This document shows, in pieces, positions 7,078 to 32,226 of a stretch of DNA of 64,000 nt. Both the position numbers and the translations under genes were made by a program. How positions within the stretch are numbered: position 1 is the stretch's first letter; each line of letters begins with the position of its first letter. The stretch is from Lentisphaerae bacterium GWF2_57_35. Its GTDB lineage: Bacteria; Verrucomicrobiota; Kiritimatiellia; CAIQIC01; GWF2-57-35. The stretch lies in contig MHBK01000048.1 of NCBI GenBank assembly GCA_001804865.1, forward strand, positions 4,843-68,842, written 5' to 3'. The notes under the pieces were generated by a model. It was not told the DNA's origin, did not search any database, and saw nothing but the letters and a program-made list of their open reading frames with translations.

Positions 7078-7081
7078 GGCT

Positions 7082-11596: not shown

Positions 11597-11677
11597 GGAG
11601 GTTTCGATCCTGCTCTACCGGCTCGGTTATGTCTTCGACTTGCTAAACAGTTGAACTGGACGTGAGCTAATCGGCAA

Positions 11678-14119: not shown

Positions 14120-14197
14120 TTTAGAAAGACATTCAAATCGAATTGGCCTATACTGCACAAATTCACATTGTCGAAACAAGCTATGGGGAATAAACCA

Positions 14198-17100
14198 ATG
14201 GTCAAATGGATTGCCGCGTTTGTATTGCTCGTTGGGTTTGAAATGGTCCATGCCGATGAAGCTTTCGAATCTCCAGCGATGCCTGAGCCTTCCATCACTG
14301 CCGATCCGAATAACCCTGATGTAAAGCCAGAATCTCCGGTGAACGGCCTGTTCGAGGCGGCCAATCGGGATATGGCGGCGACCAACTGGCCGGCCGCGAT
14401 TACCAAGTTGGAACAAGTTATCGAACAGGACCCCAGTCTGCTCTCTGCTTGGGGCCAACTCGGCTGGTGCTATTGGAACAATGGCCGCCAGGACAAAGCG
14501 ATCGAGCTGTGGGAAACCCTTCGGCGCATCAATCCAAAATTGCCGATGGCCTACAATCTGCTGGGCATGGCGTATATGGCCAATGGGGAGCAGCCGAAAG
14601 CCATTGAGTTTTTTCGCAAGAGTCTGGAGTTAGATCCGGATCAAGAACCTGTCGAGTATTCGATCGCCCGCCTTTCGCGTTGGGAGGGGCGCTTCGAAGA
14701 CTCGATCAGCATTCTCCGACGTCAATTGGACAAGAACGAAGACCGGCTCGATATCCGGTTGGAACTCGCGCGCGCCTATCTGAACAACTGGCAATTCGAA
14801 GAGGCGCTTCCTCTTTGGGAAAAACTGGCGCAAAGCCAGCCGGACAACTTGGAATATCGTTTGTACTGTGCGGAGTGCCGACTGCGCACCGGCCAGGCCG
14901 ATGAGGCGTTGCCTGAGATCGAACAAATTTTAGCCGAAGATCCGAACCATACCAGCGCGTTGTTAATCATGGCCGATCGGGCCGAATACGGCGAACGTCC
15001 CGCCGATGCGATTCCCTATCTTCGCCGGTTGGTCGCGGAAACCACGGAACTGCAATTGCGCCAGAAATATCGAATGAGGTTGATCGACCTCTACGTCCGC
15101 CTCAATCGCGACAAGCCCTTGGAGTATCCCCTGAACGAAGCGATCGGCATTCTCAAGGATTACATCCGGGACGATCCCAATAATACGGATGCGCTGCTTT
15201 TGCTTGGCGAATTGCTTTCGATGGACAACCAATTCGCCGATGCCCAACAAAAATTCACGATCGTGCTGCGCGATTTCAACCCCAACAACATGAGGGCGCA
15301 ACGCGGCTTGTTCGAAGCGTATGCCGCCGAGAAGAACTTTGCGGAGGCCGACAAGCATCTGAAGCGCGTCGAGGCCTTCAATCCACAAGATCCGTATAAT
15401 CATTACCTGCGGGCTCGCTATGAAGCGGCGAGGGGACGTTTCGGACGGGCGTATCAGGAACTGGATAAATTGGAAGCGGCCGGCCAGCAGGGTTCCGTGC
15501 TCGTTCTGCTCTTTCATGGTTTGACCACGAGCGAGTGGACCGAAATCCCTTCCGTCAGGCTCTTCCGCGAGCAATTGATGGCCTTGCAAAAAGCCGGCTT
15601 CCGTTTTCTGACGCCCATGGATCTGCGCGATTATTTTTCTTCCCTGGAAAGAATTAACGACAGCCGTTCGGAGCGAACGCCCAATCGCGCCGTCATCATC
15701 ACCTTCGACGATGCGCGTCTGGATTCCTTCCGTTTGGCTACGCCGGTTTTCAAGGACTTGGGCATTCCTTTTTCGATGCATGTGCCGGTCGGCAACATCG
15801 AACGGAAAGATCCGTTTCTCGCGTCCTGGAAGCAATTGGCGGATTATCGGCAACAGGGTTGGGTGATGGGCAGCCATCTTTATGAGGCCAGCACGCCTGT
15901 GCCGGGCGAGCGGGGGATGATGGTCCGTCCCCTGACCAGCCTTATCCGCCTCAACCCGGCCAACCGCATGGAAACGCTGGACGAATTCAACCAACGCATC
16001 CATATGGAATACGACCTGAGCAGCCGGCTGATGCAATCCTATTTGGGCGAAAAGCCGTCCTTTGTGGCCTATCCCATGGGCGACATCGGGCAGGAGACCT
16101 ACAGCGACGTTCCGGAGGCCGTGACGGTCAATTTGCAGTCGGCATCCACGAATTACGCCGTCGGTTTCATTCAATCCGTTTTCGGGTATGCCGTCAACGG
16201 GGATAATCCTCTGCTGTATCAGCGGCATGAGTTGGGGCGGCATGTTTCGGCCAGCAACACCGTGAATGAAGTGCTCAGGATGCATCCGGTCTTTTTAGCG
16301 CGCCGCATGAGGGCCGAATTGGCGACGCTGGAAGGCAAGCAGTACAAAGCGCTGAAAATCCTGGAACGGCTGAAGGAAGACGGTTATCCGGAGCAGTCCT
16401 ACAACGACCTCAATACCTATGTGCATACGAAGCTGTCCCACAAATTCGTTCCTCCGCCGTCGGTTGACAACGTGAGCAAAGGGCCTTTCAATTTGGATAT
16501 TAAGAAGCCGTATGTGGGGGCGAGGGCTCATTATTTCCAAGACAATTTGGAGCGCAAAAATTATCACATGTATGCGTTCGGAGGGCTTAATCTCACGCCC
16601 AATATCGTTGCCGAAGGCCAGGCCGGATGGGGTCAGCTTAAACAAGGCCGGCAAGACTTGGATGACGGCAGTTCGCTGCCGGAAATCGAGGTTGACGAGA
16701 CCTCGGCCGGGGTTAAAGGATCCTTCACATTTCCCAGCGGAAATTTGCTCTCCGGCGATTTCATGTTGCGCAATTTCGGCGAGCCCGTGAACGAAGTCGA
16801 GCCGACCTATGGGATCGAGGGTCAGTTCAAACCGGTCTTGCCGCTCGATCTGACCGGACGCTTCGAGCACGATGTGGAGCCGTCTGCGCGCACCGTCGTG
16901 CGCGACATGGTTACTTACGATCAGTGGATGGCGAACGGGGTTTTCAGCATTCGGGATTGGTGGGATGTGTGGGGCAGCGGACAATACTACCTCTATTCCG
17001 ACGATAACAATCGTTTGCATGGAGCCGTGAGCAGCCAATGGTTGATTTGGGAAGACATCGGCTTGCGCCTCGGCTTGCGTTATGCCTATACCACCTCGGA

Positions 17101-17521
17101 AGAAGCCCGCGACGATTATTGGACGCCTTACCAGTTGAATCGATTTTATCTGGAAGCATCGCTCCGTCATACCTACCAGCGAACCTATTATAACTTGCAG
17201 GCGCGGACCGGACTGGGCAAACAGAATGTCCGCCCGGATGCCGACGAAAAACACCAGGCCCGTCTGGTTCAGTTAAACCAGGATATCGCAACGGCCCGAC
17301 AGCAGCGCTGGCCGCAAAGCGACATCGATGCGCTGATTCAGGAACGCGACCAACTGATCGTCAATCCGCCGGAAGAAGAATGGAAACCCGTTTTCGGCTT
17401 GGCCGCTTCCGTCCGCAGCAAGCTGGGCGAACACTGGGAATTGCACGGCGAAGTCTCCGTCAACAAAGTGCCGGAGTATTACGAAGCCACGGTGGCGGGC
17501 GATATTACCTTCCGATTTTAA
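14198..17521 (+). CDS. Secreted TPR array + CE4 deacetylase-like domain + C-terminal outer-membrane beta-barrel (PgaA/PgaB-like roles fused)
   Basis: Signal peptide 'MVKWIAAFVLLVGFEMVHADE'; alternative starts at 14168 and 14183. TPRs ('AWGQLGWCYWNNGRQDKAIELWE'). CE4 module 'AVIITFDDARLDSFRLATPVFKDLGIPFSMHVPVG' and 'FVAYPMGDIG'. The last ~330 aa have alternating hydrophobic/aromatic strands ('HMYAFGGLNLTP', 'GVKGSFTFPSGN', 'LRLGLRYAYTT') and end in 'DITFRF', a typical OMP C-terminal aromatic signature. Confidence 0.7.
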   Translation: MVKWIAAFVLLVGFEMVHADEAFESPAMPEPSITADPNNPDVKPESPVNGLFEAANRDMAATNWPAAITKLEQVIEQDPSLLSAWGQLGWCYWNNGRQDKAIELWETLRRINPKLPMAYNLLGMAYMANGEQPKAIEFFRKSLELDPDQEPVEYSIARLSRWEGRFEDSISILRRQLDKNEDRLDIRLELARAYLNNWQFEEALPLWEKLAQSQPDNLEYRLYCAECRLRTGQADEALPEIEQILAEDPNHTSALLIMADRAEYGERPADAIPYLRRLVAETTELQLRQKYRMRLIDLYVRLNRDKPLEYPLNEAIGILKDYIRDDPNNTDALLLLGELLSMDNQFADAQQKFTIVLRDFNPNNMRAQRGLFEAYAAEKNFAEADKHLKRVEAFNPQDPYNHYLRARYEAARGRFGRAYQELDKLEAAGQQGSVLVLLFHGLTTSEWTEIPSVRLFREQLMALQKAGFRFLTPMDLRDYFSSLERINDSRSERTPNRAVIITFDDARLDSFRLATPVFKDLGIPFSMHVPVGNIERKDPFLASWKQLADYRQQGWVMGSHLYEASTPVPGERGMMVRPLTSLIRLNPANRMETLDEFNQRIHMEYDLSSRLMQSYLGEKPSFVAYPMGDIGQETYSDVPEAVTVNLQSASTNYAVGFIQSVFGYAVNGDNPLLYQRHELGRHVSASNTVNEVLRMHPVFLARRMRAELATLEGKQYKALKILERLKEDGYPEQSYNDLNTYVHTKLSHKFVPPPSVDNVSKGPFNLDIKKPYVGARAHYFQDNLERKNYHMYAFGGLNLTPNIVAEGQAGWGQLKQGRQDLDDGSSLPEIEVDETSAGVKGSFTFPSGNLLSGDFMLRNFGEPVNEVEPTYGIEGQFKPVLPLDLTGRFEHDVEPSARTVVRDMVTYDQWMANGVFSIRDWWDVWGSGQYYLYSDDNNRLHGAVSSQWLIWEDIGLRLGLRYAYTTSEEARDDYWTPYQLNRFYLEASLRHTYQRTYYNLQARTGLGKQNVRPDADEKHQARLVQLNQDIATARQQRWPQSDIDALIQERDQLIVNPPEEEWKPVFGLAASVRSKLGEHWELHGEVSVNKVPEYYEATVAGDITFRF

Positions 17522-17541
17522 TCGTGGCGGGAACGTTAAGA

Positions 17542-17747
17542 GGACGGCGAGGCCGCCGTCCCTCCCGGCAGGTGGCCCGGCTTCTCCGAAGACGGGCTTT
17601 CCTGAAAAGAACGAGCCCCCCACAGAAAATAACAGGAGCGGTTGGGTGCATCCTGACACGGCCGCAACCGCGGACGGCGACGGAGCGCCGTCCCTACCTT
17701 TTTTTGCCGTGGGTAGGGCGCTCACTCCGCTGAGCGCCGTGTTTTCC
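17542..17747. terminator. Cluster of GC-rich hairpins between convergent EPS genes; probable bidirectional termination zone
   Basis: GGACGGCG-aggc-CGCCGTCC at 17542-17561. GGACGGCG-acggag-CGCCGTCC at 17672-17693, followed by CTACC+T7. GGCGCTCA-ctccgc-TGAGCGCC at 17717-17738, followed by GTGTTTT. CCCTACC (17692-17698) can also pair with GGTAGGG (17712-17718). Confidence 0.45.
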
Positions 17748-17779: not shown

Positions 17780-20700
17780 TTATTTCTTGCTGTCTACCGT
17801 TGAGGCTTCCATTCCCGTCCAGAGCGGAATGCCCGGCAATGCATCGGGCATGGCTACGACAACCGGTTTTGTTGGCGAAAGCGTGCTTAAAGGCTTGTGC
17901 GAACCATTGGGCTCTTCCCACGAAACAGCTTGCACATCCCGGACTTCGGAGGCCCCATTGAAAATGGCTGCGCCTTCTCCTGCGCCGCGCCACTGGCAGG
18001 CTCCGGCAACCGGATCGAGCGCGAGCACCAACACCTTCAACGAGGAGCCCGCCAGTTCGCGATCCAACTTTTCGAACCAGGCGGCTTCAGGCAATCGGTC
18101 CAGCAGCAGGGTAAATCCGGAAAAGCCGTGTTTATCGGCGGCCGCCAGCAGCTCGCTGCCCGAGATCTGATGAGCGGAAGAGGCCTGAACCGCCGGCATC
18201 AGCCGCAAACGATAATATCGGGCGAAGAGCCGCAACAGCATCTCGTTTTCGCCCGCTGACTTTGACCAGGTTCCGTTTTCCTCGATCCGAAACCAAAGAG
18301 GCGCAAGGTCGGAGATGTAATTGCACTCGGGCTGCAGTTTTTCGATCAGGACATCCACATCGTTGGTGGCTTTCAGCGCCGGCAGCAGCACCAAGCGAGG
18401 CATCAGCGGGCCGGCGGCTATACGGCTGATGGCGGCCTGCGCGGTCCCTCGTTCGTTCCGATAAACACTCAATCCCACCCATCCCAAGCCCAGATGGGGC
18501 GGTACTTCCAGGGGAGATGAGAAAACGGGCGAGCTGTCAATCAGCCCGATCACGCCGTCGCCGCGCAAGGCGAGGCGCAGGTTTGCGCCGTCCGCGGGGA
18601 GCGTCCAGAATTTGGATTGCGATGCCACCAAGTGTCCGTGATTCCAGACTTGCAGGAAGAGCTGGTGCGTGTCGTCCAGTCCGAACCGGATAAAGTGATC
18701 CGACGTTCGCCGCACATAAAGCCAGAAGGAACCGGAAACTTTTTTCACGACCGCCTCGATGAACGAGTCGGTGATATGCTCCGATCCCAGCAGCCGCAAG
18801 GCCGCCTCGGAATGGGAGGAATCCGCACTCAGAACGCCTCCCTGGGTGGAGTGCCTCGAGAACGAACCTCCATCGAGCCACCAGGCTTCCGACAGATGTC
18901 CGTCGGCGCAGGATTCCTGTAAAGGCGCATACCGGGGTTTTAAGCGAAGAAACAAGGCGGTGACGCGATCGTCGCCTTTTTGTTCGGAGACGGTATTGAT
19001 GAGCCGGATCAGCGGATAGGTTTGGGCCACGCTCAACAAATCGTATTTCCAAATGGCTTGCCCTAATTCGTAGCGTTTATCGGCTTTCTGGCCCAGTTTC
19101 ACCAACGTATCCAGGCGCGCAGTAAATTCCGCCGGCTCCAAAGGCAACCGCAAGGCGATGGCATTGGCCTCGATGTGTTCAGGCTCCAACGTCAGGATTC
19201 GCTCGACCAGCCGGATCGCTTCCGGGTTCCGGTTTTGCCGCCACAACCATTCTGCCTGGGCCAAAAGAATGGATACGTCGTCCGGGAATAGACGGGCATA
19301 CATATTCAAGCTGCTGACGGCTTCGTTGATTCGTCCCATTTTTGTCAGCAAATTGACCCGTCGAATGACGAGCGAAATCTGGCCGGGATCCTGTTCCAGG
19401 CTTCGATCGTAAAACAGAATGGCCTGTTCGGAATCGCCTTTGCGGAGGTAGGCGTCGCCGATCAGCATGGGCGGGCGCGGATTCATGGCATCCAGTTTGA
19501 ACCATTCCGACCAGGCTTCGACGGCTTTGTCGTATTCCGCATCCAGGTAGGCCGCCTGGCCCTCCTGTTGCAGCCGGCTTAAACTGGCTTCCAACGTTTC
19601 TTCCATGTTGGTCCCGGCGGTCATCGGGATTTCGAACGACAAGGGCAACCCTTCATCCGGCGCCGGGCTGGGAATCGTTTCCACTTTGGTGGTCGATTCC
19701 TTGGTATAAGGATCTCGTTTGATGGGCGAGTTGGTGGAGACCGCCAGTTGAAGCCCGGGCGCCACCGCGAGAATGGATCGCAAGGACATGCTGGACTCGA
19801 TCGCTGTTGGCAATCGCACCAGCATGGAAAGTCCTTTGCGTTGAAGCGTCTTGGCGCATTGCATCAGCCAGGTGGTGATTCCAGCCGGGGAGGGGTTGTT
19901 CATATCCCCGAAATCCATGAAGATGCCGTCGCATTGATCCGCCGCGGCATCGTCGGCCAGCTTGGACGGCGTCAAGCGGCTTAACGCCTGCTCGTTTTCC
20001 ACCCGTACGCAGGGCATCAGTTTTAGATGATAAATGCGGGAAAGCGTTTTGAAGGTCGTCGCGTCCCATCCGGTTTTCAAGGCTTGTCCTACGCCGGATA
20101 CGGTCATCCACTTGGGACTCAAGCCGGTTAATCGGTAGGCATTCCGGTGCAGCCACTGCAAAACGTAGGGCTCCCGGGCGCGATCGATGTCCCAGGCGGC
20201 CAAGGTGCGTTGTTCCGAGTTCAGCACCACGCTGGAGATGCTCACTCGCGCCTGGCCCTTGACCGGGTCCCATACGCTGATCCCCAACATGCCGGGCCGG
20301 GCTTCGCCCCGCAATAGAATGTGATCCTTGAAGATCTGACGTCCGTCCAGCATGGCAAACAACATGCGGTCTCGGACGAATATCTCCAGGATGTGATCGT
20401 CGCGCGAATCGAGCCCCAAGCGGGCCGAGGCCAGCGTAAAACGTTCCGCGCTGACGCTCTTTTGCCGGAGCCAGACATTCAGGTCGTTGCTCAGCTCGTC
20501 GTCCGACCAATTATCCATCTCCTGGCCCATCTTCTTTTCGCGCAGCCAGACTTCGCCCCGCGTATCCATGCCCAGATAAACATACGACTCTTCATCGGCG
20601 GCCGCCCGCAGATAGACGCCCATCTGGCCCCGTTCCAATTTGAAAAGGACGCGCGTATAGAAATCGCGGCTTAAATCGCTTCCGCCCAGCCATATTTTGG

Positions 20701-21808
20701 CGCCGGTAAGTTCTTCGGGAGCATACAGGGTCAGCCGATTGTCTTCCTGCTTCATCGCGCCCCAATCCACAATCCAGGCCGACGGCATGGTCACGGTGTC
20801 CTTCTCCAGTTGAGCTTCCTCCAATGGCCAAGAACGATCCAGATAGCGGATCAAATCGGAGGCGCTCCAACTCGAACGCACCCGCAACCGGTTCAATCTT
20901 CGCGGGTCGCTGTAACGGGTGTTCAGCGCCAGATTCCCGGAAAGAAAACCCAGGTCGTAATTTTTTCCGACCAACGCCAGATTGATGCTCCGGGGGACGA
21001 CGGCCCGCGGCTGGAATTGTCCGAAATCCCCATAGGGATATGCGAAAGCCATCGGTTTGAGGCTGACTTCTTCCTCGATATCGGTCAGGCATTTTTCGTG
21101 ATCGGCGATCAGGCGTTTCTGGAATTCTTCCACGGTTTCGTAACGGAGGTCCTTGTCCAACCAGCGTGGACTGGTCATGAAATGGCCCATGCGCCCGCCG
21201 GGGCTGGCCTTGATTTTTTCAAACCCGCCGTAACTTTGGGCGCCGATCTCCCACAACTTGGATCGCGCCATGATTTGAACATAGGGCCAGAGCAAGCTGG
21301 CGGGATCTTTTTCCACGATCGATTCCGTCCATAGAAACATGACCGCCGTCCAGCCCATCCGGCGCAGGATGGGATTGACGCTGTAGTAGGACGTTTTCCG
21401 GGCGTGATCGAAGGTGAGCAGCACGGCCTTGGGGGGAAGCTTCCGGCCTTCCTTAAACAGGCGCCGCACGTCGTCCAGACGAATTGGATTATACCCATGC
21501 GCTTTCAAGACCTCGAGGTGCTCGTTAAACTGAGCCGGAGAAATCTCGTTGGTTTTCGAAGAAACGCCTTCGTACGCCAGCGTCACAAACGATTCGGCCT
21601 CGCGCGGGCCGCTATAGGTCGCCGGAGGCCACAGCCAGCGGCTGACCACAATTTTCACCGGGAACCACCAGGCCACCAACAATCCAATCACCATGATGTA
21701 ATGGAGCCAAACCGAGCCATAGGAAACGGAAACCGGCTGGACGGGACGGGAAGAATGAGGCTGCATTTCGGAAGGACGCCCGTCCGGATCGTGAACTTGT
21801 TGTGTCAT
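17780..21808 (-). CDS. 1342-aa membrane-anchored periplasmic multidomain protein: CE4-like domain (variant motif) + [lectin-like + alpha/beta module] + TPR + second [lectin-like + alpha/beta module]
   Basis: Start at ATG 21808 overlaps the synthase stop (ATGA). N-terminal TM segment 'VWLHYIMVIGLLVAWWFPVKIVV'. CE4-like 'AVLLTFDHARKTSYYSVNPILRRMGW', 'FAYPYGDFGQ'. TPRs 'AYLDAEYDKAVEAWSEWFKLD...GDAYLRKGDSEQAILFYDRSLEQDP'. Internal duplication is visible ('RIYHLKLMPCVRV...CDGIFMDFG...GLSMLVRLP' versus 'RYYRLRLMPAVQA...FSGFTLLLD...SLKVLVLALDP'). The track's 1468-aa version extends 378 nt into the synthase gene. Confidence 0.7.
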   Translation of the reverse strand: MTQQVHDPDGRPSEMQPHSSRPVQPVSVSYGSVWLHYIMVIGLLVAWWFPVKIVVSRWLWPPATYSGPREAESFVTLAYEGVSSKTNEISPAQFNEHLEVLKAHGYNPIRLDDVRRLFKEGRKLPPKAVLLTFDHARKTSYYSVNPILRRMGWTAVMFLWTESIVEKDPASLLWPYVQIMARSKLWEIGAQSYGGFEKIKASPGGRMGHFMTSPRWLDKDLRYETVEEFQKRLIADHEKCLTDIEEEVSLKPMAFAYPYGDFGQFQPRAVVPRSINLALVGKNYDLGFLSGNLALNTRYSDPRRLNRLRVRSSWSASDLIRYLDRSWPLEEAQLEKDTVTMPSAWIVDWGAMKQEDNRLTLYAPEELTGAKIWLGGSDLSRDFYTRVLFKLERGQMGVYLRAAADEESYVYLGMDTRGEVWLREKKMGQEMDNWSDDELSNDLNVWLRQKSVSAERFTLASARLGLDSRDDHILEIFVRDRMLFAMLDGRQIFKDHILLRGEARPGMLGISVWDPVKGQARVSISSVVLNSEQRTLAAWDIDRAREPYVLQWLHRNAYRLTGLSPKWMTVSGVGQALKTGWDATTFKTLSRIYHLKLMPCVRVENEQALSRLTPSKLADDAAADQCDGIFMDFGDMNNPSPAGITTWLMQCAKTLQRKGLSMLVRLPTAIESSMSLRSILAVAPGLQLAVSTNSPIKRDPYTKESTTKVETIPSPAPDEGLPLSFEIPMTAGTNMEETLEASLSRLQQEGQAAYLDAEYDKAVEAWSEWFKLDAMNPRPPMLIGDAYLRKGDSEQAILFYDRSLEQDPGQISLVIRRVNLLTKMGRINEAVSSLNMYARLFPDDVSILLAQAEWLWRQNRNPEAIRLVERILTLEPEHIEANAIALRLPLEPAEFTARLDTLVKLGQKADKRYELGQAIWKYDLLSVAQTYPLIRLINTVSEQKGDDRVTALFLRLKPRYAPLQESCADGHLSEAWWLDGGSFSRHSTQGGVLSADSSHSEAALRLLGSEHITDSFIEAVVKKVSGSFWLYVRRTSDHFIRFGLDDTHQLFLQVWNHGHLVASQSKFWTLPADGANLRLALRGDGVIGLIDSSPVFSSPLEVPPHLGLGWVGLSVYRNERGTAQAAISRIAAGPLMPRLVLLPALKATNDVDVLIEKLQPECNYISDLAPLWFRIEENGTWSKSAGENEMLLRLFARYYRLRLMPAVQASSAHQISGSELLAAADKHGFSGFTLLLDRLPEAAWFEKLDRELAGSSLKVLVLALDPVAGACQWRGAGEGAAIFNGASEVRDVQAVSWEEPNGSHKPLSTLSPTKPVVVAMPDALPGIPLWTGMEASTVDSKK

Positions 21809-23325
21809 CGTGTACCCCACGTGGTTTTGCGCATGGTGGCCAGGGCGTAATAGCCCTGCCAACTGAAAAACAGGACGTATGTAATCGTAAAAACGAACCC
21901 TGCCCACCAATGCGGGCGCCCCGTTTTCTCCAGATAAAACAGCGACCACAAGAGCGTGACGACCAGCACGCCGCCAACATAAAAGCTCGGGAAGTAGTGC
22001 TCCATAATGGGGCCCCAGACCAAGGCTCGCAACATGACCAGCGGCGCCAGCATCGGCAACACCGTCATGGCATACCAGGAGACCGCCGCCACCGGATGCT
22101 TGCACCACATGAACCGCCCGGCATACAGCATCTCCCGAACCCACGAGCGTTTCCACCGGCATTGCTGCCGGATGTATTTGCCCCATTTTTCGGGCACGAT
22201 GGTGGTCGCCAGGGCTTCGTCGTCATAGAGGACCCGATAATCGCGGAGCAGGTAGTTGGTCAAACTCCGGTCGTCGCCGAACGTGGCGTAATGGCCGAGG
22301 AATTTCTGGTAAAGCCATCGATCCAGGACATTCAGCACGCAGACCTTGCGATAGGCGGAAAAACAACCCGGGCAGCAACTGACCGCGCCAAAAAGACTTT
22401 CGGCGGCTTTCAATACGCGATACGAAACGAAATAGCGGACATCCTGCATTTTCGTCAACGCATTGGTTCCGACATTCTCGACATCCGTATGTCCCGCGAC
22501 GGCCGCCACGGTTGGATCGACCAGCCCCTGGACGACTTTCCGGATGGCGCCGGGCATGAGGAAGCTGTCGGAATCCACATACACAAGCATTTCGCCTTTG
22601 GCCAGCAAAGCGCCGATGGCCATGCCATGACGCTTCCCTTTGTTTTTTTCGAAATCGACGACGACCAGCGACGGATGCCGATCCAATGCTTTCATCATTT
22701 CGTCCAGCGTGCGGTCGGTCGACCCGTCGTTTACCGCCACCACTTCCAGCTTCGAATGAGGATAGCCTTCCTGGTAAATGCGCCCGATGGTTTTGCCGAT
22801 GGAGTCGTCTTCGTTGCGGCAGGCTACCACCACGGTCACCGTCGGCTCGAATCCGACATCCCGGGGCGCCAGATAAAATGCCGCCAGAATGAACCGGGAT
22901 AAAATAAACACGCCCACGCTCAGGCTGTAGAGATTAATCCACGGCTGATACCAGTAATAATCCAGGTTGTGCAGCTTGAAGTAGATGGCCAGGGTAATCA
23001 GCAGGACGAGCAATGCGTTGAAGCCTAATACCAGGCCTCCATGCATCTTGTTGTATTTCTCCGAGGCTCTGCCCGCATCCGTTTCGTCGCCGGCTTCCGG
23101 CGTGGGCAGCCGGGACTCCAAGACGGTTCGTTCCATCGTATTGCTGCAGAAGGGGCAGACCGAGGATGTCAGGGAGGACATGACATGGATGCTCATCTCG
23201 CAGTTCGGACAACGATGGCTTGATCCTTTCGCCGGCTGGCGTCTTGCACCCATCGGATCTGAAACAACGCTTTCCGCAGCGCCAAGCCATGTATTGAGCC
23301 CGGCGGCCTGGTCCGAAACTGCCAT
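21805..23325 (-). CDS. Processive family-2 glycosyltransferase (hyaluronan/chitin/NodC/PgaC-like synthase) with an N-terminal zinc-ribbon
   Basis: AGGAGG lies 8 nt upstream of ATG 23325. Zinc-ribbon 'CPNCEMSIHVMSSLTSSVCPFCSNTM'. TM segments flank a GT2 core with 'VVACRNEDDSI', 'AVNDGSTDRT', 'VYVDSDS', 'GDDRSLTNYLL' and the processive-synthase motif 'QQCRWKRSW' (Q(Q/R)xRW). Several C-terminal TM helices. Confidence 0.8.
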   Translation of the reverse strand: MAVSDQAAGLNTWLGAAESVVSDPMGARRQPAKGSSHRCPNCEMSIHVMSSLTSSVCPFCSNTMERTVLESRLPTPEAGDETDAGRASEKYNKMHGGLVLGFNALLVLLITLAIYFKLHNLDYYWYQPWINLYSLSVGVFILSRFILAAFYLAPRDVGFEPTVTVVVACRNEDDSIGKTIGRIYQEGYPHSKLEVVAVNDGSTDRTLDEMMKALDRHPSLVVVDFEKNKGKRHGMAIGALLAKGEMLVYVDSDSFLMPGAIRKVVQGLVDPTVAAVAGHTDVENVGTNALTKMQDVRYFVSYRVLKAAESLFGAVSCCPGCFSAYRKVCVLNVLDRWLYQKFLGHYATFGDDRSLTNYLLRDYRVLYDDEALATTIVPEKWGKYIRQQCRWKRSWVREMLYAGRFMWCKHPVAAVSWYAMTVLPMLAPLVMLRALVWGPIMEHYFPSFYVGGVLVVTLLWSLFYLEKTGRPHWWAGFVFTITYVLFFSWQGYYALATMRKTTWGTR

Positions 23326-23532
23326 TACACAACCTCCTTTGACCTGTATCCAACCGACAAATTCAAGAGATTCAAGTACTGACGCGTCCCTGATACCCTG
23401 CACTTTAGAAAAACGACTCTTGATTAAAAATCCATTCTTATGTACTTATACGATCAATATAGTCTCGTTGGCAATATAGATCGTTGTTTCTATTCCCAAT
23501 GTCAAAGAGTGTTTGAGAGGAGAGGTCGAAGA
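23326..23532. promoter_or_regulatory. Divergent control region between the synthase operon and the receiver/ATPase operon
   Basis: A 207-bp AT-rich gap between divergent starts. It contains the direct repeat CAATATAG at 23455-23462 and 23472-23479 (17-bp register), and -35-like TTGATT (23421) and TTGGCA (23468). I could not align any canonical -10 convincingly. Confidence 0.35.
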
Positions 23533-23928
23533 ATGACCGGTTTCTTAATTATCGAAGACGAGGCCCCCATCCAAGTTATTCTCAAACGATTGATAGGCAA
23601 CATGGGTTACGATGTAACCATCGCCAATGACGGTGAAGCCGGATATCGCCTGGTTCAAGAAAACGACTTCGATGTTATTCTCACCGATCTGATTATGCCG
23701 GGGCGTCTGCAAGGATTTGAACTGCTGCGCAAAATTCGGGAAGCGAAGCCTGAGTCCTCGGTCATCGTCGTGTCAGGTCATCCCTCCAGCGAAACCTTGG
23801 CCGAATGCCAAAAACTGGGGATACAGGATTTCTTGAGCAAACCGTTTGAAATGTCCTTTGTCAGAGTGGTTGTTCAAAAGCTCCTCAACCGAAGAGCAAG
23901 TTCGGCCAGGACTGAATCGAAGCTATGA
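23533..23928 (+). CDS. Single-domain response regulator (CheY-like receiver)
   Basis: 'FLIIEDE' acidic pocket, phospho-acceptor 'FDVILTDLIMPG', 'VIVVSGH' and 'FLSKPF'. No output domain. Start at ATG 23533 is preceded by GGAGAG. Confidence 0.85.
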   Translation: MTGFLIIEDEAPIQVILKRLIGNMGYDVTIANDGEAGYRLVQENDFDVILTDLIMPGRLQGFELLRKIREAKPESSVIVVSGHPSSETLAECQKLGIQDFLSKPFEMSFVRVVVQKLLNRRASSARTESKL

Positions 23929-24845
23929 TTACCAGAACGCCATTGGGAGTGTCCTTTTTCGATCGGCTTTATGGAGGCATTTATCGCGGCCGCTCCTGTC
24001 TGGTGACCGGCCGATCGGGTTCGGGCAAGACCGCCGTCAGCCTGCATTTTCTTTCGCACGGGTTGATGTTGCAGGAACGCTGCCTGATGCTTTGCGCCAA
24101 ACCCGCCCAGGATATCGCCATTCATGCCAGCTCCTTGGGCCTGCCGGTTCAATCGGCTGTGGAGTCGGGCAATTTGATCTTGTTGGAATACAGCGACTTT
24201 GTGCCCGGCCGCGATCGGGAAGAAACGCTTATCCTGCCCCCCGACGCTTTTCTGCAGCTTAAAGAAATCATCGAAGCCCAAGCGATTCAACGGCTCATCA
24301 TCGATACCGTCTTGCCCTGGATCACCCTGCCGGATCGGGAAAAAGTGGCGGAACACGTCTTTTCGTTTGTCCGGGCCATCGATCGGTTGGGCGTATCGAC
24401 GCTGTTCACCATGCTCAAGCCGGTTTCCGTGCCCGCCTTTCAATTGCGGCAATTGATGGAGAACCTTGTGCCGATTTCCATCAGCTTGGTCTACACTCCG
24501 GAAAACGAGTCGCGCGAATGGGTGACCAATAAATACATGGGCATGAACATCCAGGCCCAGACCGTCAAATACAATATATCTCAAGGACAAGGCCTCTACG
24601 AAATTTCCGGCGCCGATGCGCCGGAGGCTTCGGTGTCCGCCTTCTCCTCTTACTCCGCGGCGCCGGACGTACAGCCGAATGCCGCTTCCGATCGTACCCC
24701 GCCGATGCAAAAAGGCTTTGCCGATTTTGTCCTCGATAAAACCGCCTATCGCGCCGCGCCTCTGCGCACTCATTCTGTTGCGTCTGTTCGTCCGTCATCG
24801 GACAAGCCGGGAGGATCGCCATCTGTTTTCGGATCGCCCAAGTAG
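23925..24845 (+). CDS. KaiC/RecA-superfamily ATPase-like protein with a Pro/Ser/Ala-rich tail
   Basis: ATGA overlap with the receiver gene. 'FDRLYGGIYRGRSCLVTGRSGSGKTAVSLHFLSHG' (Walker A in the KaiC/RadA-like context), 'QRLIIDTV' (Walker B-like). The last ~90 aa are low complexity ('SAFSSYSAAPDVQPNAASDRTPP...SSDKPGGSPSVFGSPK'). Confidence 0.65.
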   Translation: MITRTPLGVSFFDRLYGGIYRGRSCLVTGRSGSGKTAVSLHFLSHGLMLQERCLMLCAKPAQDIAIHASSLGLPVQSAVESGNLILLEYSDFVPGRDREETLILPPDAFLQLKEIIEAQAIQRLIIDTVLPWITLPDREKVAEHVFSFVRAIDRLGVSTLFTMLKPVSVPAFQLRQLMENLVPISISLVYTPENESREWVTNKYMGMNIQAQTVKYNISQGQGLYEISGADAPEASVSAFSSYSAAPDVQPNAASDRTPPMQKGFADFVLDKTAYRAAPLRTHSVASVRPSSDKPGGSPSVFGSPK

Positions 24846-24870
24846 TAGTCGTCAAAGGAGTATGCATTAG

Positions 24871-25731
24871 ATGTACGTGTCGTATTGGAACTTGCGGGAA
24901 AGACCGTTTCAGAATGTGGCCAACACGCAATTTGCCTATTTATCCCCGCAGCATCGGGAAGGATTAGCTCGCCTGTTGTATATCGTGGAAGAACGGAAGC
25001 TCGGCGGGGTTCTGATCGGTCCCTATGGCGCCGGCAAAACCATGATATTGGAAATGCTCGCCGGCATCGTGAAAACCCGGCCCAACCTCACCTATATTCA
25101 AATCGATGCCCCTCCGTCCAATGCCCTGGCTTTGGCCCGGCAGTTGTTGGCGTGCCTGCAATACACGCAGCCGGTTAACGATATCGCACAAGCCCTTAAT
25201 GCCATTCAAGGCTATTTATCCTATGCCGGAACGGCCGTTCCTCATTTGGTGGTGGTCGTCGACGAAGCCCAGATGTTGCAGGACTCCGACGCTTTTGAGT
25301 TCCTTCATTTGTTGTGCAATATGAGAGTGCGGAATAAGGACGGCGGGGTGGGGGAAAATGGGATCACCCTCATTCTGGCGGGACATCAGGATCTGGTCAG
25401 CCGCTTGGCCGCCCGGGCCTCGCTGGCTCAACGATTGCAGTTCTTCTGGAAGCTGGATCCGCTGAACCAACAGCAAACCATGGAATATGTCCAACATCGC
25501 ATGCGCAGCGCCGGCGGAGATATCTGGGCCTTCGAAGAAGAAGCGTTGAAAGCCATCGTGACTTATACGCAAGGGCTGCCGCGCTTGATCAACAACCTCT
25601 GCGACGTGGCCTTGTTGCTCGGATGCGCCATGAACGGGTCCCGCATTACAGCCGATATTGTTCGGCAGGCCGCCCGCGATGTCCAAATTCCCACCCTAAC
25701 GGAAGCCAACACCATATCGGAGGCGTCATGA
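24871..25731 (+). CDS. ExeA/MshM-like AAA ATPase (AAA_22 type)
   Basis: AAAGGAG SD lies 10 nt upstream. 'FAYLSPQHREGLARLLY' (ExeA-like N-terminus), Walker A 'GPYGAGKTM', Walker B 'HLVVVVDEAQ', 'LILAGHQDL' and 'GLPRLINNLCD'. No peptidoglycan-binding or TM extension. Confidence 0.7.
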   Translation: MYVSYWNLRERPFQNVANTQFAYLSPQHREGLARLLYIVEERKLGGVLIGPYGAGKTMILEMLAGIVKTRPNLTYIQIDAPPSNALALARQLLACLQYTQPVNDIAQALNAIQGYLSYAGTAVPHLVVVVDEAQMLQDSDAFEFLHLLCNMRVRNKDGGVGENGITLILAGHQDLVSRLAARASLAQRLQFFWKLDPLNQQQTMEYVQHRMRSAGGDIWAFEEEALKAIVTYTQGLPRLINNLCDVALLLGCAMNGSRITADIVRQAARDVQIPTLTEANTISEAS

Positions 25732-26072
25732 ACTACGAAATCGATACCCCTCTGACCATGACGGGTTTGATTGCCACGATCGTCAGTCTGATCTTTGCCG
25801 GCGCCGCTTGGTACAATTCGTATCGCCGCCGCCATCATGCCCAGCCGGACGTTCCCAGAGGACCGGTCTCGCCGCCGCCTGCCGAAGTGGCGCGGCTGCA
25901 CAAAGAGCCGTCGATCCAACCGGCCAAACCAGCTTTTTCAGCTCCTGTCCCCAGCCCGTTCGAAGCGTCGGACGCGCTCCCTAATTCCTCCTCGCTTTTT
26001 AAAAAGTTGGGTGTTAATGGAATGGAAGAACCTTCACAAGTTGGTGAAGACAAGCAATACCGCTGGGAATAA
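25728..26072 (+). CDS. Small bitopic membrane protein with a proline-rich tail
   Basis: ATGA overlap with the AAA ATPase gene. One TM segment 'LTMTGLIATIVSLIFAGAAWY', then 'PDVPRGPVSPPPAEV...PAKPAFSAPVPSPF'. The position and shape recall the small partner (ExeB/GspB-type) of ExeA-like ATPases. Homology is not demonstrable by eye. Confidence 0.5.
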   Translation: MNYEIDTPLTMTGLIATIVSLIFAGAAWYNSYRRRHHAQPDVPRGPVSPPPAEVARLHKEPSIQPAKPAFSAPVPSPFEASDALPNSSSLFKKLGVNGMEEPSQVGEDKQYRWE

Positions 26073-26126
26073 TTCCCTCGTTTTGCGTGAGCACATCGAA
26101 GGACAGGCGCAGCAGGAAGGTGATTC

Positions 26127-26594
26127 ATGGCCATGGTATGGGTGGTTGACGACGACAACGAAGTTCGGGGCGTGGTCCAGACTTTGCTTGAAGGATTGGG
26201 GCATCAGGCCCGTTCCTTCGGAGACGCTCAAACCGCATTGCAGGAATACCGACCGGGCGCCGCCGAAGTCATCATCTCCGATGTGCGAATGCCGGCGATG
26301 GACGGCCTGGCCTTCACTCACGCCATCCTCGACCGCGACCCGGAAGCCAGCATCATCATTCTGACCGGCTATCCTTCGGTCAATACCGCCGTCGAAGCCA
26401 TGCAGGCGGGCGCCGTGGATTTCTTAGGCAAACCCTGCAACGTCGGCGAACTGCGCGTGCGGGTCGACCGGGCCCTGGACATCCGCGCCTGGCAGGTCCG
26501 CCTGCGTAAAAACCGCCTGTTGACGCTGGGCCTGATCCTCTCCCTGCCGCTCTGGATTATCCTCGGGATCGTATTGGTTTCATTCCTGCATTGA
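26127..26594 (+). CDS. Response-regulator receiver domain with a C-terminal transmembrane anchor
   Basis: 'VWVVDDD', phospho-acceptor 'VIISDVRMPAMDG', 'IIILTGY' and 'FLGKPC', then a TM segment 'LLTLGLILSLPLWIILGIVLVSFL'. AGGAAGG SD. Confidence 0.8.
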   Translation: MAMVWVVDDDNEVRGVVQTLLEGLGHQARSFGDAQTALQEYRPGAAEVIISDVRMPAMDGLAFTHAILDRDPEASIIILTGYPSVNTAVEAMQAGAVDFLGKPCNVGELRVRVDRALDIRAWQVRLRKNRLLTLGLILSLPLWIILGIVLVSFLH

Positions 26595-26895
26595 GGCTGG
26601 CGCACGCGAGCCGCCAGAAAAAGGATGGATCGCGCACGTCTTTGTTCTTCATCAATACGCATGCGAAACCCCACGGTTTTTTTCTGTAGATGTACTTCGT
26701 TGAAACGTAGCCTTGTTTGCAGTGCATTTGAGCGAAAGACCCTGCGGTGCTCATAATCTTGACTATGCGCAATATCTCCCTAATCTACTTCCAAGGAGAT
26801 TGATATTAGCACGATCTAAGTGACCTGTTAGTCGGACGCTGCACACCCGGCTATGCGACGTGGGCGGGCCACATTAGCGACAAAACGAGAACCAC

Positions 26896-27552
26896 ATGAA
26901 ACAGTTATTGATACAACTTATTAAGAACACCCCTCTTTACCAACCACTCATTAAGTGGATCATAAGAAGACAGCAAAAAAGAGACCTCGTTGAATGGGAA
27001 AAAAAGGGCAGGCCCGTTCCCCCGCCGCATATCGTCAAACAGCGAACACTCCGTGCTTTTGCAAAGAAGTTCGGGCTAAAAATTTTAGTTGAGACAGGGA
27101 CCTATTATGGCGACATGGTTGAAGCCATGAAAGGGGACTTCAATCGGATATACTCTATTGAGCTGGGGAAAGAACTGTACGAGAAAGCCAAAAAGAGATT
27201 TGAAGGTGAAGGAAAAGTTGAGCTGATTCATGGCGATAGCGGATTCGTACTGAAGAATCTGATTGAAAGGATTGATGAACCTGCCTTGTTTTGGTTGGAC
27301 GGTCATTACTCCGCAGGAGTAACAGCGAAAGGCGGTAAAGTAACGCCTATTTACGAGGAGTTGACGCATATATTTAAAGGCGCAGATAGGGGGCATGTAA
27401 TTATTATTGACGATGCACGCTGTTTCGGAAAAAGCCCTGATTATCCGAGCCTCAAGGACCTGAGCGATTTCATTAGATCCAACAAACCTGATGCCCATAT
27501 CGCGATCGAAGATGACAGTATAAGGATCACGCCAAGCCTGGTGAGCAACTAA
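26896..27552 (+). CDS. Putative SAM-dependent methyltransferase (orphan, in an AT-richer islet)
   Basis: Rossmann-type 'KILVETGTYYGDM', 'IYSIELGKELYEKAKKRF', 'LIHGDS' and 'VIIIDDARCF'. This resembles small class I O-methyltransferase-like proteins of glycan clusters. The family is not resolved. Confidence 0.5.
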   Translation: MKQLLIQLIKNTPLYQPLIKWIIRRQQKRDLVEWEKKGRPVPPPHIVKQRTLRAFAKKFGLKILVETGTYYGDMVEAMKGDFNRIYSIELGKELYEKAKKRFEGEGKVELIHGDSGFVLKNLIERIDEPALFWLDGHYSAGVTAKGGKVTPIYEELTHIFKGADRGHVIIIDDARCFGKSPDYPSLKDLSDFIRSNKPDAHIAIEDDSIRITPSLVSN

Positions 27553-27758
27553 TCATGGGCTGAAGTCAGAACCAAACCATGCTGTGCATATTTGATTGTT
27601 GTCTTGAAGCCTGTCGATAGCTCTTGATTTAGCATCTTGACGCACAACATATTTATTGTAGTCCGGTTCTGCGAACCGGCCTACAGGGGCGAAGAACCAT
27701 CCCGTTATGCGCAACGAGCACCTTCATGGGGGGACAGAAACTGGCGGCAGTGTCCTGT

Positions 27759-27993
27759 CCTGACTTCAACACGGGCAAAAAACACGCTGAAATCCCCTGA
27801 AAATCAAAGGACGAGTCTTGGTTTTGGGTGTCCCCCAATGTTGAAGTCAGGAAATAAGAAAACATCGAACACTCAACATCGAACAACGAACTTCGAACTG
27901 AACAAGGAATTTTTAAATTCCACATTGGATGTTCGACGTTCGATGTTGGTTGTTCGATGTTTTCTTCGGTTTCTTACACTCCTGACTTCAACA
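27759..27993. repeat. Long imperfect palindrome (about 155 bp) with an extra upstream copy of one arm
   Basis: TGTTGAAGTCAGG (27839-27851) versus CCTGACTTCAACA (27981-27993). The inner arms are rich in CATCGAACA-type words and are complementary over about 50 bp ('agaaaacatcgaacactcaacatcgaac' versus 'gttcgatgttggttgttcgatgttttct'). The centre is GGAATTTTTAAATTCC. A further direct copy, CCTGACTTCAACA, lies at 27759-27771. Confidence 0.7.
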
Positions 27994-28090
27994 GCGTCAA
28001 GCTGCACCCCGAAGCAATCCCAACCCAAGCAAGAGCTTGACGATTTTGTTGTCTTTCGATATAGAACCCTTATCTCTAGAGGGGGGAATC

Positions 28091-28582
28091 ATGGAACCGC
28101 TCAAACACACCAAGGACCAACGTGCAGACCATCCTGCGTTGGCGGAATCGAATAAATCGGCGCATCAATTAATTGTAGACCAAAAGCATAAACTCCTGGT
28201 CGATAGGGTGATCGCGCATATTGGAACAAATAAAGACATCTTTTTAGACCGCGATGCAGCGGCGCGCCTTGCGATGATGAGCCCTCAACATTTCTCCAAA
28301 GTTTTTTTTAAAATCACGGGCGTTACCTACTCGGACTATCTCTTTCCACTTCTGGTTGCGCGAGTTCGCGAGCTGCTTGCTGACCCGATGCTGTCGATCA
28401 AGTTCATATCTGCGACGGTTGGCTTTAAAAGCGCCAACTACTTTTCGTCATGGTGCCGCAACGTTTTTGGCCTGACCCCCACCGAATATCGTGCCGCCCA
28501 TTCCAGTCCAGCTTACCAAATCAGAGAAGATCTTCCCAAATCAGAGATGAAACCTATTGGCGCCGCCTTGACTTTTCATTAA
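28091..28582 (+). CDS. AraC/XylS-family HTH transcriptional regulator (short form)
   Basis: The GAGGGGGGA SD precedes ATG 28091. The C-terminal double-HTH signature reads 'LAMMSPQHFSKVFFKITGVTYSDYL...IKFISATVGFKSANYFSSWCRNVFGLTPTEYR'. Confidence 0.75.
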   Translation: MEPLKHTKDQRADHPALAESNKSAHQLIVDQKHKLLVDRVIAHIGTNKDIFLDRDAAARLAMMSPQHFSKVFFKITGVTYSDYLFPLLVARVRELLADPMLSIKFISATVGFKSANYFSSWCRNVFGLTPTEYRAAHSSPAYQIREDLPKSEMKPIGAALTFH

Positions 28583-31029: not shown

Positions 31030-32226
31030 TTAATGGTTCTCTGAATTGAGCGGACCCATCACTTTGCTTATATAGTTTTCAAGTTCACGCCCATATTCCG
31101 TGTCTTTTCCGAGTTGGGCCAGTTGTTTGTGAACCAACAGCAAGCCCTGGCTTCCGACCTCGGCTTCTTCCGCGCTGGAATAGCGTTTCTCGGGTTCGAC
31201 CTCCAGAAATCGCTGAAGCAGGATAACAAATTGGGCGTTTTGCCGGACGTGATCCGGCAAAATGCTGGGCAGTCGGCCGGGCAACTGGTTCTTGTAACTT
31301 ATTAAATCGGCTTCGGTGATTTTGTCTTTTGAGAAAAGCAAGGGTTCGCCCCGCAGCATTTCCAAGCCCACCAAGCCGAGGCTGTAGAAGTCCGATTGAA
31401 TCAGGTGCGCTCCGCGCTGGTGCATTTCGGGCGCCATGTAGGCGGGGGTTCCCATCAGAATGGACACTTTTTCGTTGATGGTGACGGCGCGGCCGTAGTC
31501 GACGAGTTTTACATAACCCAGGCGGTCGATCATGATGTTGGCCGGCTTGATGTCGCTGTGAATAAAGCCCATTTCGTGCAGCGTTTCCAGGCCTCGCAGG
31601 ACTTGCCGCATGATATACAGCGCCACGCCTGGCTGAATTCGAATTCTTCCTTTCTCGATTCGGAAGATGACATCCGTAAAGCGCGCCCATTCCTCGGGCG
31701 TGCTGCTGTGCTTAACCTGCTCGAGGTGGGTACCGTTGAGCATGTCGCGCAGACTGATGCCGTCGATCATTTCCATCTGAATGTAGCCAATGCCGTTGCT
31801 TTCCTCGTAAATGTCCGGCGCGACCAGGCTCGGATTTTTTACGAGTTGCAGCTTGGACGATTGGGCCGCAATACGACCCATGTCGGTCCAGTATTTCTTG
31901 GCGCTGGGATAGATGGACGGGTCGAACAGCTTGATGGCATGGCGCGTTACGCAGCCCCGTGCGCCTTGGCGAAGGCCTAAAAAGACAACGCCCTGACGGC
32001 CCCGGCCCAGTTCCTTTAAGAAACGGTAGGCCACGGGATAAAAAATGGCCCGGGCCTTGATGATCGCTTGGTAATTCGCGACCAATTGACGGCTGCCGCG
32101 CCCGAGGCCGGCCCCGGCGGTATCCATCATGGTCGTCGCACTCATCGAAGCGGTCTCTGCAAGTAGATCGACGCACGTAGTATCAAAATGTTGCTTTTCT
32201 TTTTGCACGTGGGAAAGTGTACGCAT
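31030..32226 (-). CDS. Soluble Hanks-type Ser/Thr protein kinase
   Basis: 'LGRGRQGVVFLG' (G-loop), 'AIKLF' (VAIK-like Lys), catalytic loop 'IHSDIKPANIMI', 'LVDYGRA' (DFG-like) and 'GTPAYMAPE'. No TM segment. The start is uncertain; an alternative Met lies at 32145. Confidence 0.8.
   Translation of the reverse strand: MRTLSHVQKEKQHFDTTCVDLLAETASMSATTMMDTAGAGLGRGSRQLVANYQAIIKARAIFYPVAYRFLKELGRGRQGVVFLGLRQGARGCVTRHAIKLFDPSIYPSAKKYWTDMGRIAAQSSKLQLVKNPSLVAPDIYEESNGIGYIQMEMIDGISLRDMLNGTHLEQVKHSSTPEEWARFTDVIFRIEKGRIRIQPGVALYIMRQVLRGLETLHEMGFIHSDIKPANIMIDRLGYVKLVDYGRAVTINEKVSILMGTPAYMAPEMHQRGAHLIQSDFYSLGLVGLEMLRGEPLLFSKDKITEADLISYKNQLPGRLPSILPDHVRQNAQFVILLQRFLEVEPEKRYSSAEEAEVGSQGLLLVHKQLAQLGKDTEYGRELENYISKVMGPLNSENH

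Follow-up and report, generated by a model that had tools for sequence, protein, structure and literature searches.

The 64,000-nt stretch of contig MHBK01000048.1 analysed here (the window; all coordinates below are window positions) carries a cassette of four genes, encoding a single-domain response-regulator receiver (RR1), a KaiC-like protein, an AAA+ ATPase and a small single-pass membrane protein, that lies head-to-head with a polysaccharide synthase operon and keeps this company in many other genomes. We infer that the cassette specifies a regulatory complex, accessory to a polysaccharide system of the synthase-dependent kind, in a composition previously undescribed. The complex would be cytoplasmic, and the machine it serves would comprise a HAS/NodC-like glycosyltransferase family 2 (GT2) synthase, a giant protein combining a family 4 carbohydrate esterase (CE4) domain with TPR repeats, and a TPR-CE4 protein as the probable porin. 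As to function, we give about even credence to a membrane-tethered, phosphorylation- and ATP-dependent complex that licenses a Pga-like exopolysaccharide machine specific to bacteria of the Planctomycetes-Verrucomicrobia-Chlamydiae (PVC) group. The features that carry this argument are the following.

23533-23928, + strand: RR1, single-domain response-regulator receiver, cassette gene 1 (PF00072, E 5e-26)
23925-24845, + strand: KaiC-like RecA-fold NTP-binding protein, gene 2 (PF06745, E 5e-24)
24871-25731, + strand: ExeA/MshM-like AAA+ ATPase (AAA_22), gene 3 (PF13401, E 1e-14)
25728-26072, + strand: small single-pass membrane protein, gene 4 (no Pfam or NCBIfam match, one N-terminal transmembrane helix)
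26127-26594, + strand: RR2-TM, tail-anchored single-domain receiver, gene 5 (PF00072, E 8e-26, C-terminal transmembrane helix)
23326-23532, no strand: intergenic region from which synthase operon and cassette diverge, the head-to-head order being kept in most related loci
21805-23325, - strand: processive GT2 synthase, HAS/NodC/chitin-synthase/PgaC-like (Pfam Glyco_tranf_2_3, Chitin_synth_2)
17780-21811, - strand: giant CE4/TPR periplasmic protein, 1343 aa (TIGR03938 PgaB, E 1e-32; Polysacc_deac_1, TPR)

The cassette and its link to the synthase operon

The original prediction had described five plus-strand open reading frames (ORFs), genes 1 to 5, linked by overlaps or short gaps. All five are present where it placed them, and ORF coordinates and sequence together confirm the linkage: 4-nt ATGA overlaps join genes 1 and 2 (at 23925) and genes 3 and 4 (at 25728), 25 nt separate genes 2 and 3, and 54 nt separate genes 4 and 5. 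The ATG of RR1 is preceded by a GAGGAGAGG ribosome-binding site, and a weak terminator-like hairpin with a T-run lies at 26065-26077, between genes 4 and 5. Apart from this hairpin after gene 4, terminator-like motifs occur at the frequency expected from shuffled sequence; promoter-like motifs modestly exceed it. As an evolutionary unit the five genes fared less well: genes 1 to 4 are conserved together and make up the whole conserved unit, and gene 5 is no conserved member of it.

A scan of GTDB species representatives with the ATPase recovered 80 loci, which divide into a clade of 56 (ATPase at least 41% identical) and an outgroup of 24 (about 30% identical); within the clade the ATPases share 41-69% identity. 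All 56 clade loci come from PVC bacteria, one of them an isolate, 'Kiritimatiellaeota bacterium B1221' (locus L042), and ATPase homologues were found in metagenome-assembled genomes (MAGs) of Kiritimatiellota, Lentisphaerota and Verrucomicrobiota; the outgroup comes from Omnitrophota, Planctomycetes and others. Of the 54 testable clade loci, about 52 have the KaiC-like gene immediately upstream of the gene for the ATPase (49 counted by script, plus three of the five misses, which we explain as ORF-boundary artefacts), and RR1 precedes the KaiC-like gene in 41 of 48, being absent from some lineages. An ORF ending in WE, the mark of the small protein, is found in 46 of 63 clade loci, against 0 of 23 in the outgroup. 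KaiC-like protein, ATPase and small protein form the core of the cassette, and RR1 accompanies them in most cases.

The link of this core to the synthase is well supported in both directions. Among the 33 clade loci with flanks of at least 4 kb on both sides, 25 have a GT2 orthologue within 10 kb of the cassette; the reverse test, which starts from the synthase, considered 33 metagenome loci whose sequence extends at least 3.5 kb upstream of the GT2 gene, and 22 of these carry the cassette. The 24 outgroup loci have neither a KaiC-like nor a GT2 gene, save for L065, a misassigned clade locus. Nine homologue contexts show the same order of receiver, KaiC-like protein, ATPase and small ORF; in every contig long enough to show it, this set is head-to-head with the genes for GT2 and the CE4 giant. 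Synteny with GT2 and CE4 genes, by which the original prediction proposed to judge its reading, is thus present in many other genomes.

Three arrangements occur, and all keep cassette and synthase linked. The canonical one is the divergent order seen in the window. In a variant (L031, L042 and others) the gene for the small protein heads the synthase operon, still divergent from RR1, and the operon runs from the small protein through a GHL10-like protein, a TPR protein and GT2 to the CE4 protein. In the third, receiver-less KaiC-AAA-small paralogues are convergent with a second CE4-GT2 operon (L029, L035, L038). Such second, receiver-less sets (at 8592-10738 in L029, and in L035, L038 and L060) stand in genomes that also bear a canonical cassette; the KaiC-like paralogue of L029 has lost its P-loop lysine (GTGTS). 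The locus of L001, the closest long relative, is rearranged and duplicated, with a DDE transposase (1906-3672) inserted between two synthase/CE4 operons that flank a single cassette. Literature searches on KaiC-like, ExeA, TIGR03015, AAA_22 and Kiritimatiellota exopolysaccharide topics found no description of the cassette, and a paper on Pontiella exopolysaccharide does not mention it.

Gene 5 was considered as a member of the operon or cassette and rejected, being absent past the cassette where the contig can be read and having other neighbours where orthologues occur. No RR2-TM gene lies downstream of the cassette in L001, L002, L004, L005, L006 or L089; the contig of L088 ends just past the ATPase gene and is uninformative. 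One orthologue, in L090, follows a GT4/WbaP-type glycan cluster, and another, in L091, lies near Flavodoxin_2 and Pribosyltran genes, much like the downstream flank in the window. RR2-TM belongs to a small family of its own, tail-anchored receivers of about 155 aa that come from Kiritimatiellae where the source gives a name. As had been predicted, it ends in a transmembrane helix (residues 129-155); D9, D52 and K102 are invariant, and the membrane motif L-S-x-P-x-W-x-x-L-G (P141, W143, G147) is so strikingly conserved as to suggest a specific partner within the membrane.

Predicted properties of the cassette proteins

By hydropathy, RR1, the KaiC-like protein and the ATPase are soluble. Genes 2 and 3 match the Pfam families that had been named for them, PF06745 and PF13401. 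The KaiC-like protein scores 85.5 bits against PF06745 (gathering threshold, 26.6) and falls far below the cutoffs of the NCBIfam models for KaiC (56.6 bits against 408) and ArlH (E 4e-7). Its single domain, residues 1-228, is followed by a disordered Ala/Pro-rich tail with a short conserved F-x-x-x-V-L motif; in the AlphaFold2 model the predicted local distance difference test (pLDDT) score exceeds 90 in the core and is below 50 in the tail, and the top Foldseek match is the CI domain of KaiC, with a TM-score of about 0.8 on the target. Walker A (GRSGSGKT) and the Walker B residue D127 are conserved, and GxxGxGK[ST] is present in 56 of 58 orthologues. The catalytic Glu-Glu pair of KaiC (FEES in CI) aligns to C-AKP here and to S-A-R/K-P in the family consensus, and it is replaced in all orthologues. 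Because Walker A and B are kept and the glutamate pair is lost, nucleotide binding appears likely and hydrolysis of the KaiC type doubtful. The family is small, with 93 clusters at E <=1e-30 among 1.84 billion representatives.

The ATPase, of 286 aa, consists of an AAA+ base and lid only. Its full-length match to TIGR03015 (120.4 bits, E 9e-35, residues 1-272 aligned to 1-267 of 269) lies below the cutoff of 324.5, which marks it as related to that family but not an equivalog; the assignment to the ExeA-like ATPases made in the original prediction agrees with this match and with the genomic context of an outgroup homologue, described below. The motifs GxxGxGK[ST] and DEAQ and the arginines R188, R210 and R238 are invariant in the family. 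No transmembrane helix is predicted (the maximum 19-residue Kyte-Doolittle mean is 1.32), nor is there a PG_binding domain (PF01471), a C39-like domain or a winged helix. A sequence search of the PDB returned no relative. The AlphaFold2 model (pLDDT 87.5) has ORC2, Cdc6, MuB and TnsC as its nearest solved folds, with TM-scores of 0.63-0.70 at 13-20% identity. Grouping with transposition helpers or ORC/Cdc6-like proteins, an outcome that had been named as adverse to an envelope role, therefore holds for nearest solved folds only: by sequence the protein goes with the ExeA/MshM/PEP-CTERM family. A role as a transposition helper or ORC-like protein was rejected, as sequence profiles lead to TIGR03015 and ExeA-like proteins with only faint TniB matches and the winged helix is missing; the window offers no transposase context. 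No exosortase occurs among the annotated neighbours, the one part of the window and genome that was screened for it.

In the outgroup locus L074, the ATPase gene, whose product is about 30% identical to the clade, lies between genes for a PilB/MshE-like ATPase and a GspF-like protein, with TPR, 'T2SS_HK' kinase and receiver genes nearby. Because this homologue sits in a pilus/type II secretion system (T2SS) cluster, recruitment of the PVC clade from type IV filament systems is suggested. The cluster itself, at 5289-17746 of a Planctomycetales MAG, is of the MSHA-like type IV filament/T2SS kind and encodes, in order, a coiled-coil protein, a TPR protein, a PilB/MshE-like ATPase with an N-terminus that binds cyclic di-GMP (c-di-GMP), the AAA protein, GspF, 'T2SS_HK', a short unannotated ORF and a receiver. 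Several loci from Omnitrophota and Elusimicrobiota hold two or three tandem copies of the ATPase gene.

The small protein has one N-terminal transmembrane helix, then a basic cluster and a Pro-rich linker of variable length. Its helix is highly conserved (TG-V/L-IAT-x-LS-x-IFA), as is its C-terminus, which comprises F-[KR]-[KRQ], about 25 residues, an acidic patch and a terminal Y-x-W-E-COOH; four sequences end in WD, among them that of L029 (Y-V-W-D). Across 49 distinct homologues, lysine and arginine together average 0.12 ahead of the helix, against 4.2 over the 15 residues that follow, and because of this asymmetry the protein is predicted to be N-out/C-in, with about 8-12 residues outside and the Pro-rich linker in the cytoplasm.

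RR1 conserves D9, D52, S81 and K103 in 49 orthologues. Both receivers keep the acidic pocket, D52, the Ser/Thr and the Lys, in agreement with the intact phospho-acceptor pockets originally reported. Equally in line with that account, no histidine kinase was found in the window, either by tblastn with three kinases, which matched only the gene 5 receiver, or by a screen of all ORFs of at least 150 aa for H-box, N-box and G-box motifs, both searches being of limited sensitivity. Histidine kinases adjoin the cassette in eight related loci, directly downstream in L004, L015, L022, L023 and L036 and convergent in L007, L009 and L021. Since the phospho-acceptor residues of RR1 are kept family-wide and kinases adjoin the cassette in these eight loci, phosphorelay input is plausible. 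At 5062-19981 of L004 (= L115), an additional RR-KaiC-like pair and a PAS histidine kinase are inserted ahead of the cassette, and a 1591-aa dCache/HAMP/PAS hybrid kinase and further kinase and receiver genes lie past it.

The polysaccharide genes and the flanks

Three further features of the window belong to the discussion.

14168-17521, + strand: TPR + CE4 protein, candidate export porin (Pfam TPR, Polysacc_deac_1)
11678-14119, + strand: second TPR protein, with signal peptide and CE4-like C-terminal region (Pfam TPR families)
31030-32226: Hanks-type kinase (Pkinase, E 2e-34), as originally assigned

The locus fits a synthase-dependent exopolysaccharide system of the Pga/Bcs/Pel/Alg type, with a GT2 synthase of the QxxRW type, CE4 and TPR proteins and a putative porin. 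The synthase scores 167 bits against NCBIfam NodC and 113 against PgaC, both below cutoff; it conserves GDDRSLTN, QQCRWKRSW and CxxC...CPFC, carries a conserved N-terminal zinc ribbon on the cytoplasmic side and multiple transmembrane helices, and contains no PilZ or other c-di-GMP domain detectable with Pfam. The CE4 giant, with one N-terminal transmembrane helix, a PgaB-like CE4 deacetylase domain and TPR repeats, is translationally coupled to the synthase gene, which it follows in related loci too. Its longest ORF starts at 22186 and shares 380 nt with the end of the synthase gene (21805-22186); because the corresponding overlaps in relatives are only 4-16 nt, the internal start at 21811 is favoured.

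The protein at 14168-17521, a counterpart of which co-occurs in many related loci, has a signal-like N-terminus and ends in ...ITFRF, as is typical of outer-membrane barrels; from this C-terminal ...FRF alone it is the probable export porin. The protein at 11678-14119 also has a signal-like N-terminus. A GHL10 (glycosyl-hydrolase-like 10) protein recurs in related loci, at 5661-7967 of L042, from 19460 onwards in L001 and at 11511-13670 of L005; in the variant arrangement its gene is part of the synthase operon, and the protein may correspond to the hydrolase module of PgaB and PelA.

Directly past the cassette (26600-28000) the G+C content falls to about 0.50, and this stretch may be an insertion or an operon boundary; a 218-aa ORF without a Pfam match (26896-27552) is followed by a small AraC-type regulator (28037-28582). 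At the other end, 810-10211 holds one radical-SAM gene, three tandem B12-binding radical-SAM paralogues, a methyltransferase, two ORFs of no family and a GH3-family (acyl-adenylate/amido-synthetase-like) protein, and looks like an uncharacterised modification or natural-product pathway.

Proposed function and comparison with known systems

We posit an inner-membrane location for the small protein, next to the synthase, and recruitment of the soluble ATPases by the Y-x-W-E peptide in which its flexible, cytoplasmic Pro-rich arm ends. The AAA+ protein, with its fold of the ORC/Cdc6/MuB/TnsC type, would be an oligomerising, ATP-dependent switch through which the synthase complex is licensed to assemble or to act, and the KaiC-like protein, which would bind nucleotide without possessing the catalytic glutamates, could be a nucleotide-dependent scaffold or a modulator of the AAA+ protein. 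Receiver phosphorylation would set the state of the complex, by kinases whose genes adjoin the cassette in some lineages and here would lie elsewhere in the genome. To our knowledge, the characterised synthase-dependent systems (cellulose, poly-N-acetylglucosamine, Pel and alginate) are switched on by c-di-GMP receptors, and the cassette would stand in for these receptor modules. The fullest form of this proposal is control independent of c-di-GMP, in which the phospho-receiver sets a tethered two-ATPase complex that docks on the zinc-ribbon synthase through the N-out/C-in Y-x-W-E tether; its two ATPases, covered by the same joint judgement, would be a hydrolysis-impaired KaiC-like ring or scaffold and an ExeA/MshM-type AAA+ switch recruited from pilus/T2SS systems. 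We advance this fullest form tentatively, and would sooner expect some part of it to fail than all of it to hold. The original prediction had proposed a module that energises or licenses assembly of a trans-envelope exopolysaccharide complex under phosphorelay control; the tie to polysaccharide genes and a plausible phospho-control survive from it, and the analogy with ExeA/ExeB and the inclusion of gene 5 do not.

Several points weigh against a licensing complex. All contacts between proteins are inferred, as are the direction of control and any influence on the synthase. The topology of the tether derives from the positive-inside rule, and the KaiC-like protein could use another catalytic residue, such as the invariant E88. 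RR1 is missing in some lineages, and phospho-control is therefore not essential to the core function. Cassette or synthase stands alone within 10 kb in about one-quarter to one-third of loci, in source genomes that are mostly fragmented MAGs. Finally, an alignment of the KaiC-like family against Escherichia coli BcsE gave an hhalign E of 0.45; no sequence homology was thus detected, and the parallel with the Bcs system drawn below is architectural only.

Other explanations can accommodate part of the evidence. The cassette could be a signalling module without a physical tie to the synthase, a Kai-like timer or switch driven by phosphorylation and ATP, with a transcriptional or other output and an adjacency that reflects co-regulation. 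KaiC homologues are often paired with receivers and kinases, L004 has its additional RR-KaiC pair and PAS kinases, and about one-quarter of loci have no GT2 gene near the cassette; yet Pfam and NCBIfam show no output domain, DNA-binding or enzymatic, in any of the four proteins, the dedicated tether with its highly conserved transmembrane helix points to action at the membrane, the variant arrangement puts the tether gene within the synthase operon, and each paralogous synthase operon owns a KaiC-AAA pair. We consider such a module unlikely. Less probable again is an ATPase that energises polymer translocation, or that controls the quality or turnover of the giant periplasmic protein by remodelling or extraction, rather than acting as a switch; this we regard as very unlikely. 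Two P-loop proteins with conserved nucleotide-binding motifs, predicted to be tethered to the membrane, would suit it, but the AAA+ fold is nearest to ORC, Cdc6, MuB and TnsC, which, as far as we know, act as nucleotide-dependent switches and not as threading unfoldases, the KaiC-like protein lacks the KaiC catalytic glutamates, and the synthase-dependent systems known to us move their polymer without a separate ATPase.

The remaining rival is the one favoured by the original prediction, in which the cassette mirrors ExeA/ExeB (GspA/GspB) and the ATPase and a bitopic partner assemble the outer-membrane export component via the periplasm and peptidoglycan. The ATPase does belong to the ExeA/MshM/TIGR03015 family, with an AAA_22 P-loop domain and the family's conserved N-terminal motif; JGI labels its homologues 'general secretion pathway protein A'; its gene is translationally coupled to that of a small membrane protein downstream, as gspA is followed by gspB; and the locus encodes TPR and porin-like envelope proteins that need assembly. 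ExeA and ExeB, however, are defined by one transmembrane helix each and large periplasmic domains, ExeA being a peptidoglycan binder and ExeB the member of the pair that contacts the secretin (PMC4098917). E. coli GspA combines AAA_22 (PF13401) with C39-like and PG_binding domains, and the soluble ATPase here has neither of the latter two and no transmembrane helix. Against GspA of E. coli K-12, itself a divergent AAA_22 member, the P-loop alone aligns (BLASTP E 0.15, hhalign probability 2%), and the small protein shows no similarity to E. coli GspB (hhalign probability 0.3%), which is N-in/C-out with a periplasmic domain, whereas the small protein is predicted to have the opposite topology and no periplasmic domain. 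No T2SS genes occur among the annotated neighbours in the window. Membership in the ExeA/ExeB system was accordingly rejected, and a functionally similar trans-envelope factor strikes us as distinctly unlikely.

If the fullest form of the proposal holds, polysaccharide secretion would have a post-translational kind of licensing that is new and operates without c-di-GMP, and the stand-alone ExeA/MshM-like ATPases would gain their first defined role. We know of no established function for stand-alone ExeA/MshM/PEP-CTERM ATPases or for bacterial single-domain KaiC-like proteins, and the cassette would offer a tractable context for both. It also marks a matrix polymer system, undescribed and probably built on hexosamines, in Kiritimatiellota, Lentisphaerota and Verrucomicrobiota, polysaccharide specialists that are abundant in the environment and little studied.

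Set against known systems, the locus is a composite. Its ATPase resembles the MshM-type and PEP-CTERM proteins of TIGR03015 in being a stand-alone, soluble protein of about 270-290 aa with GxxGxGK[ST] and DEAQ, but scores far below that family's cutoff, forms a separate clade, and has a KaiC-like partner and in most cases a GT2/CE4 operon for neighbours, instead of pilus, T2SS or exosortase genes. The KaiC-like protein shares the RecA-like KaiC fold and P-loop with KaiC and ArlH (FlaH) and, like ArlH, is a single domain encoded next to a partner ATPase; unlike KaiC, it has no CI-CII tandem and has lost the catalytic glutamate pair family-wide, it differs from both in its long disordered tail with a short motif of its own, and its partner is an AAA+ protein where that of ArlH is a PilB-like ATPase. 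The polysaccharide genes recall PgaABCD in their processive GT2, PgaB-like CE4 deacetylase, TPR repeats and probable porin; in contrast to that system, the synthase is nearer to NodC, HAS and chitin synthases and has a zinc ribbon, PgaD is missing, the deacetylase, GH-like and TPR modules are fused in proteins of 1100-1470 aa, and every equivalog score falls below cutoff.

The original prediction knew of no comparable combination in characterised synthase-dependent systems, and in this it overlooked BcsE, BcsF and BcsRQ of cellulose systems of the E. coli type (PMC7439463). In BcsE, an N-terminal domain predicted to be RecA-like (modelled on KaiC) precedes a degenerate receiver and then GGDEF*; the protein recruits the ATPase complex BcsRQ, and BcsF, a short single-pass protein whose gene comes directly after that of BcsE, takes it to the membrane (PMC7439463). 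The bcsEFG operon is divergent from bcsRQAB, and BcsF consists of an acidic N-terminus, a transmembrane helix and a basic tail. In both systems, then, a cytosolic accessory set is encoded divergently from the synthase operon and combines a RecA/KaiC-like module, a receiver-fold module and a separate P-loop ATPase, and a short single-pass inner-membrane protein, with an acidic N-terminus, a transmembrane helix and a basic cytoplasmic tail and encoded immediately downstream, recruits (or, in the cassette, would recruit) the soluble parts. The two also differ. Here the receiver stands by itself as a protein and keeps its phospho-acceptor pocket intact, whereas BcsE contains a degenerate REC*; the GGDEF*/c-di-GMP site is absent; the RecA-fold protein retains Walker A and B; the ATPase is an AAA+ protein of the ExeA/MshM type, whereas BcsQ is of the SIMIBI/MinD type; the tether is longer than BcsF, with a Pro-rich arm and a Y-x-W-E end; and the synthase is HAS/NodC-like with a zinc ribbon, where BcsA has PilZ. 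E. coli BcsE/BcsF/BcsRQ thus offers the closest known architecture, an analogue without detected sequence homology, to which the cassette may have converged, with phosphorylation and ATP in the place of c-di-GMP.

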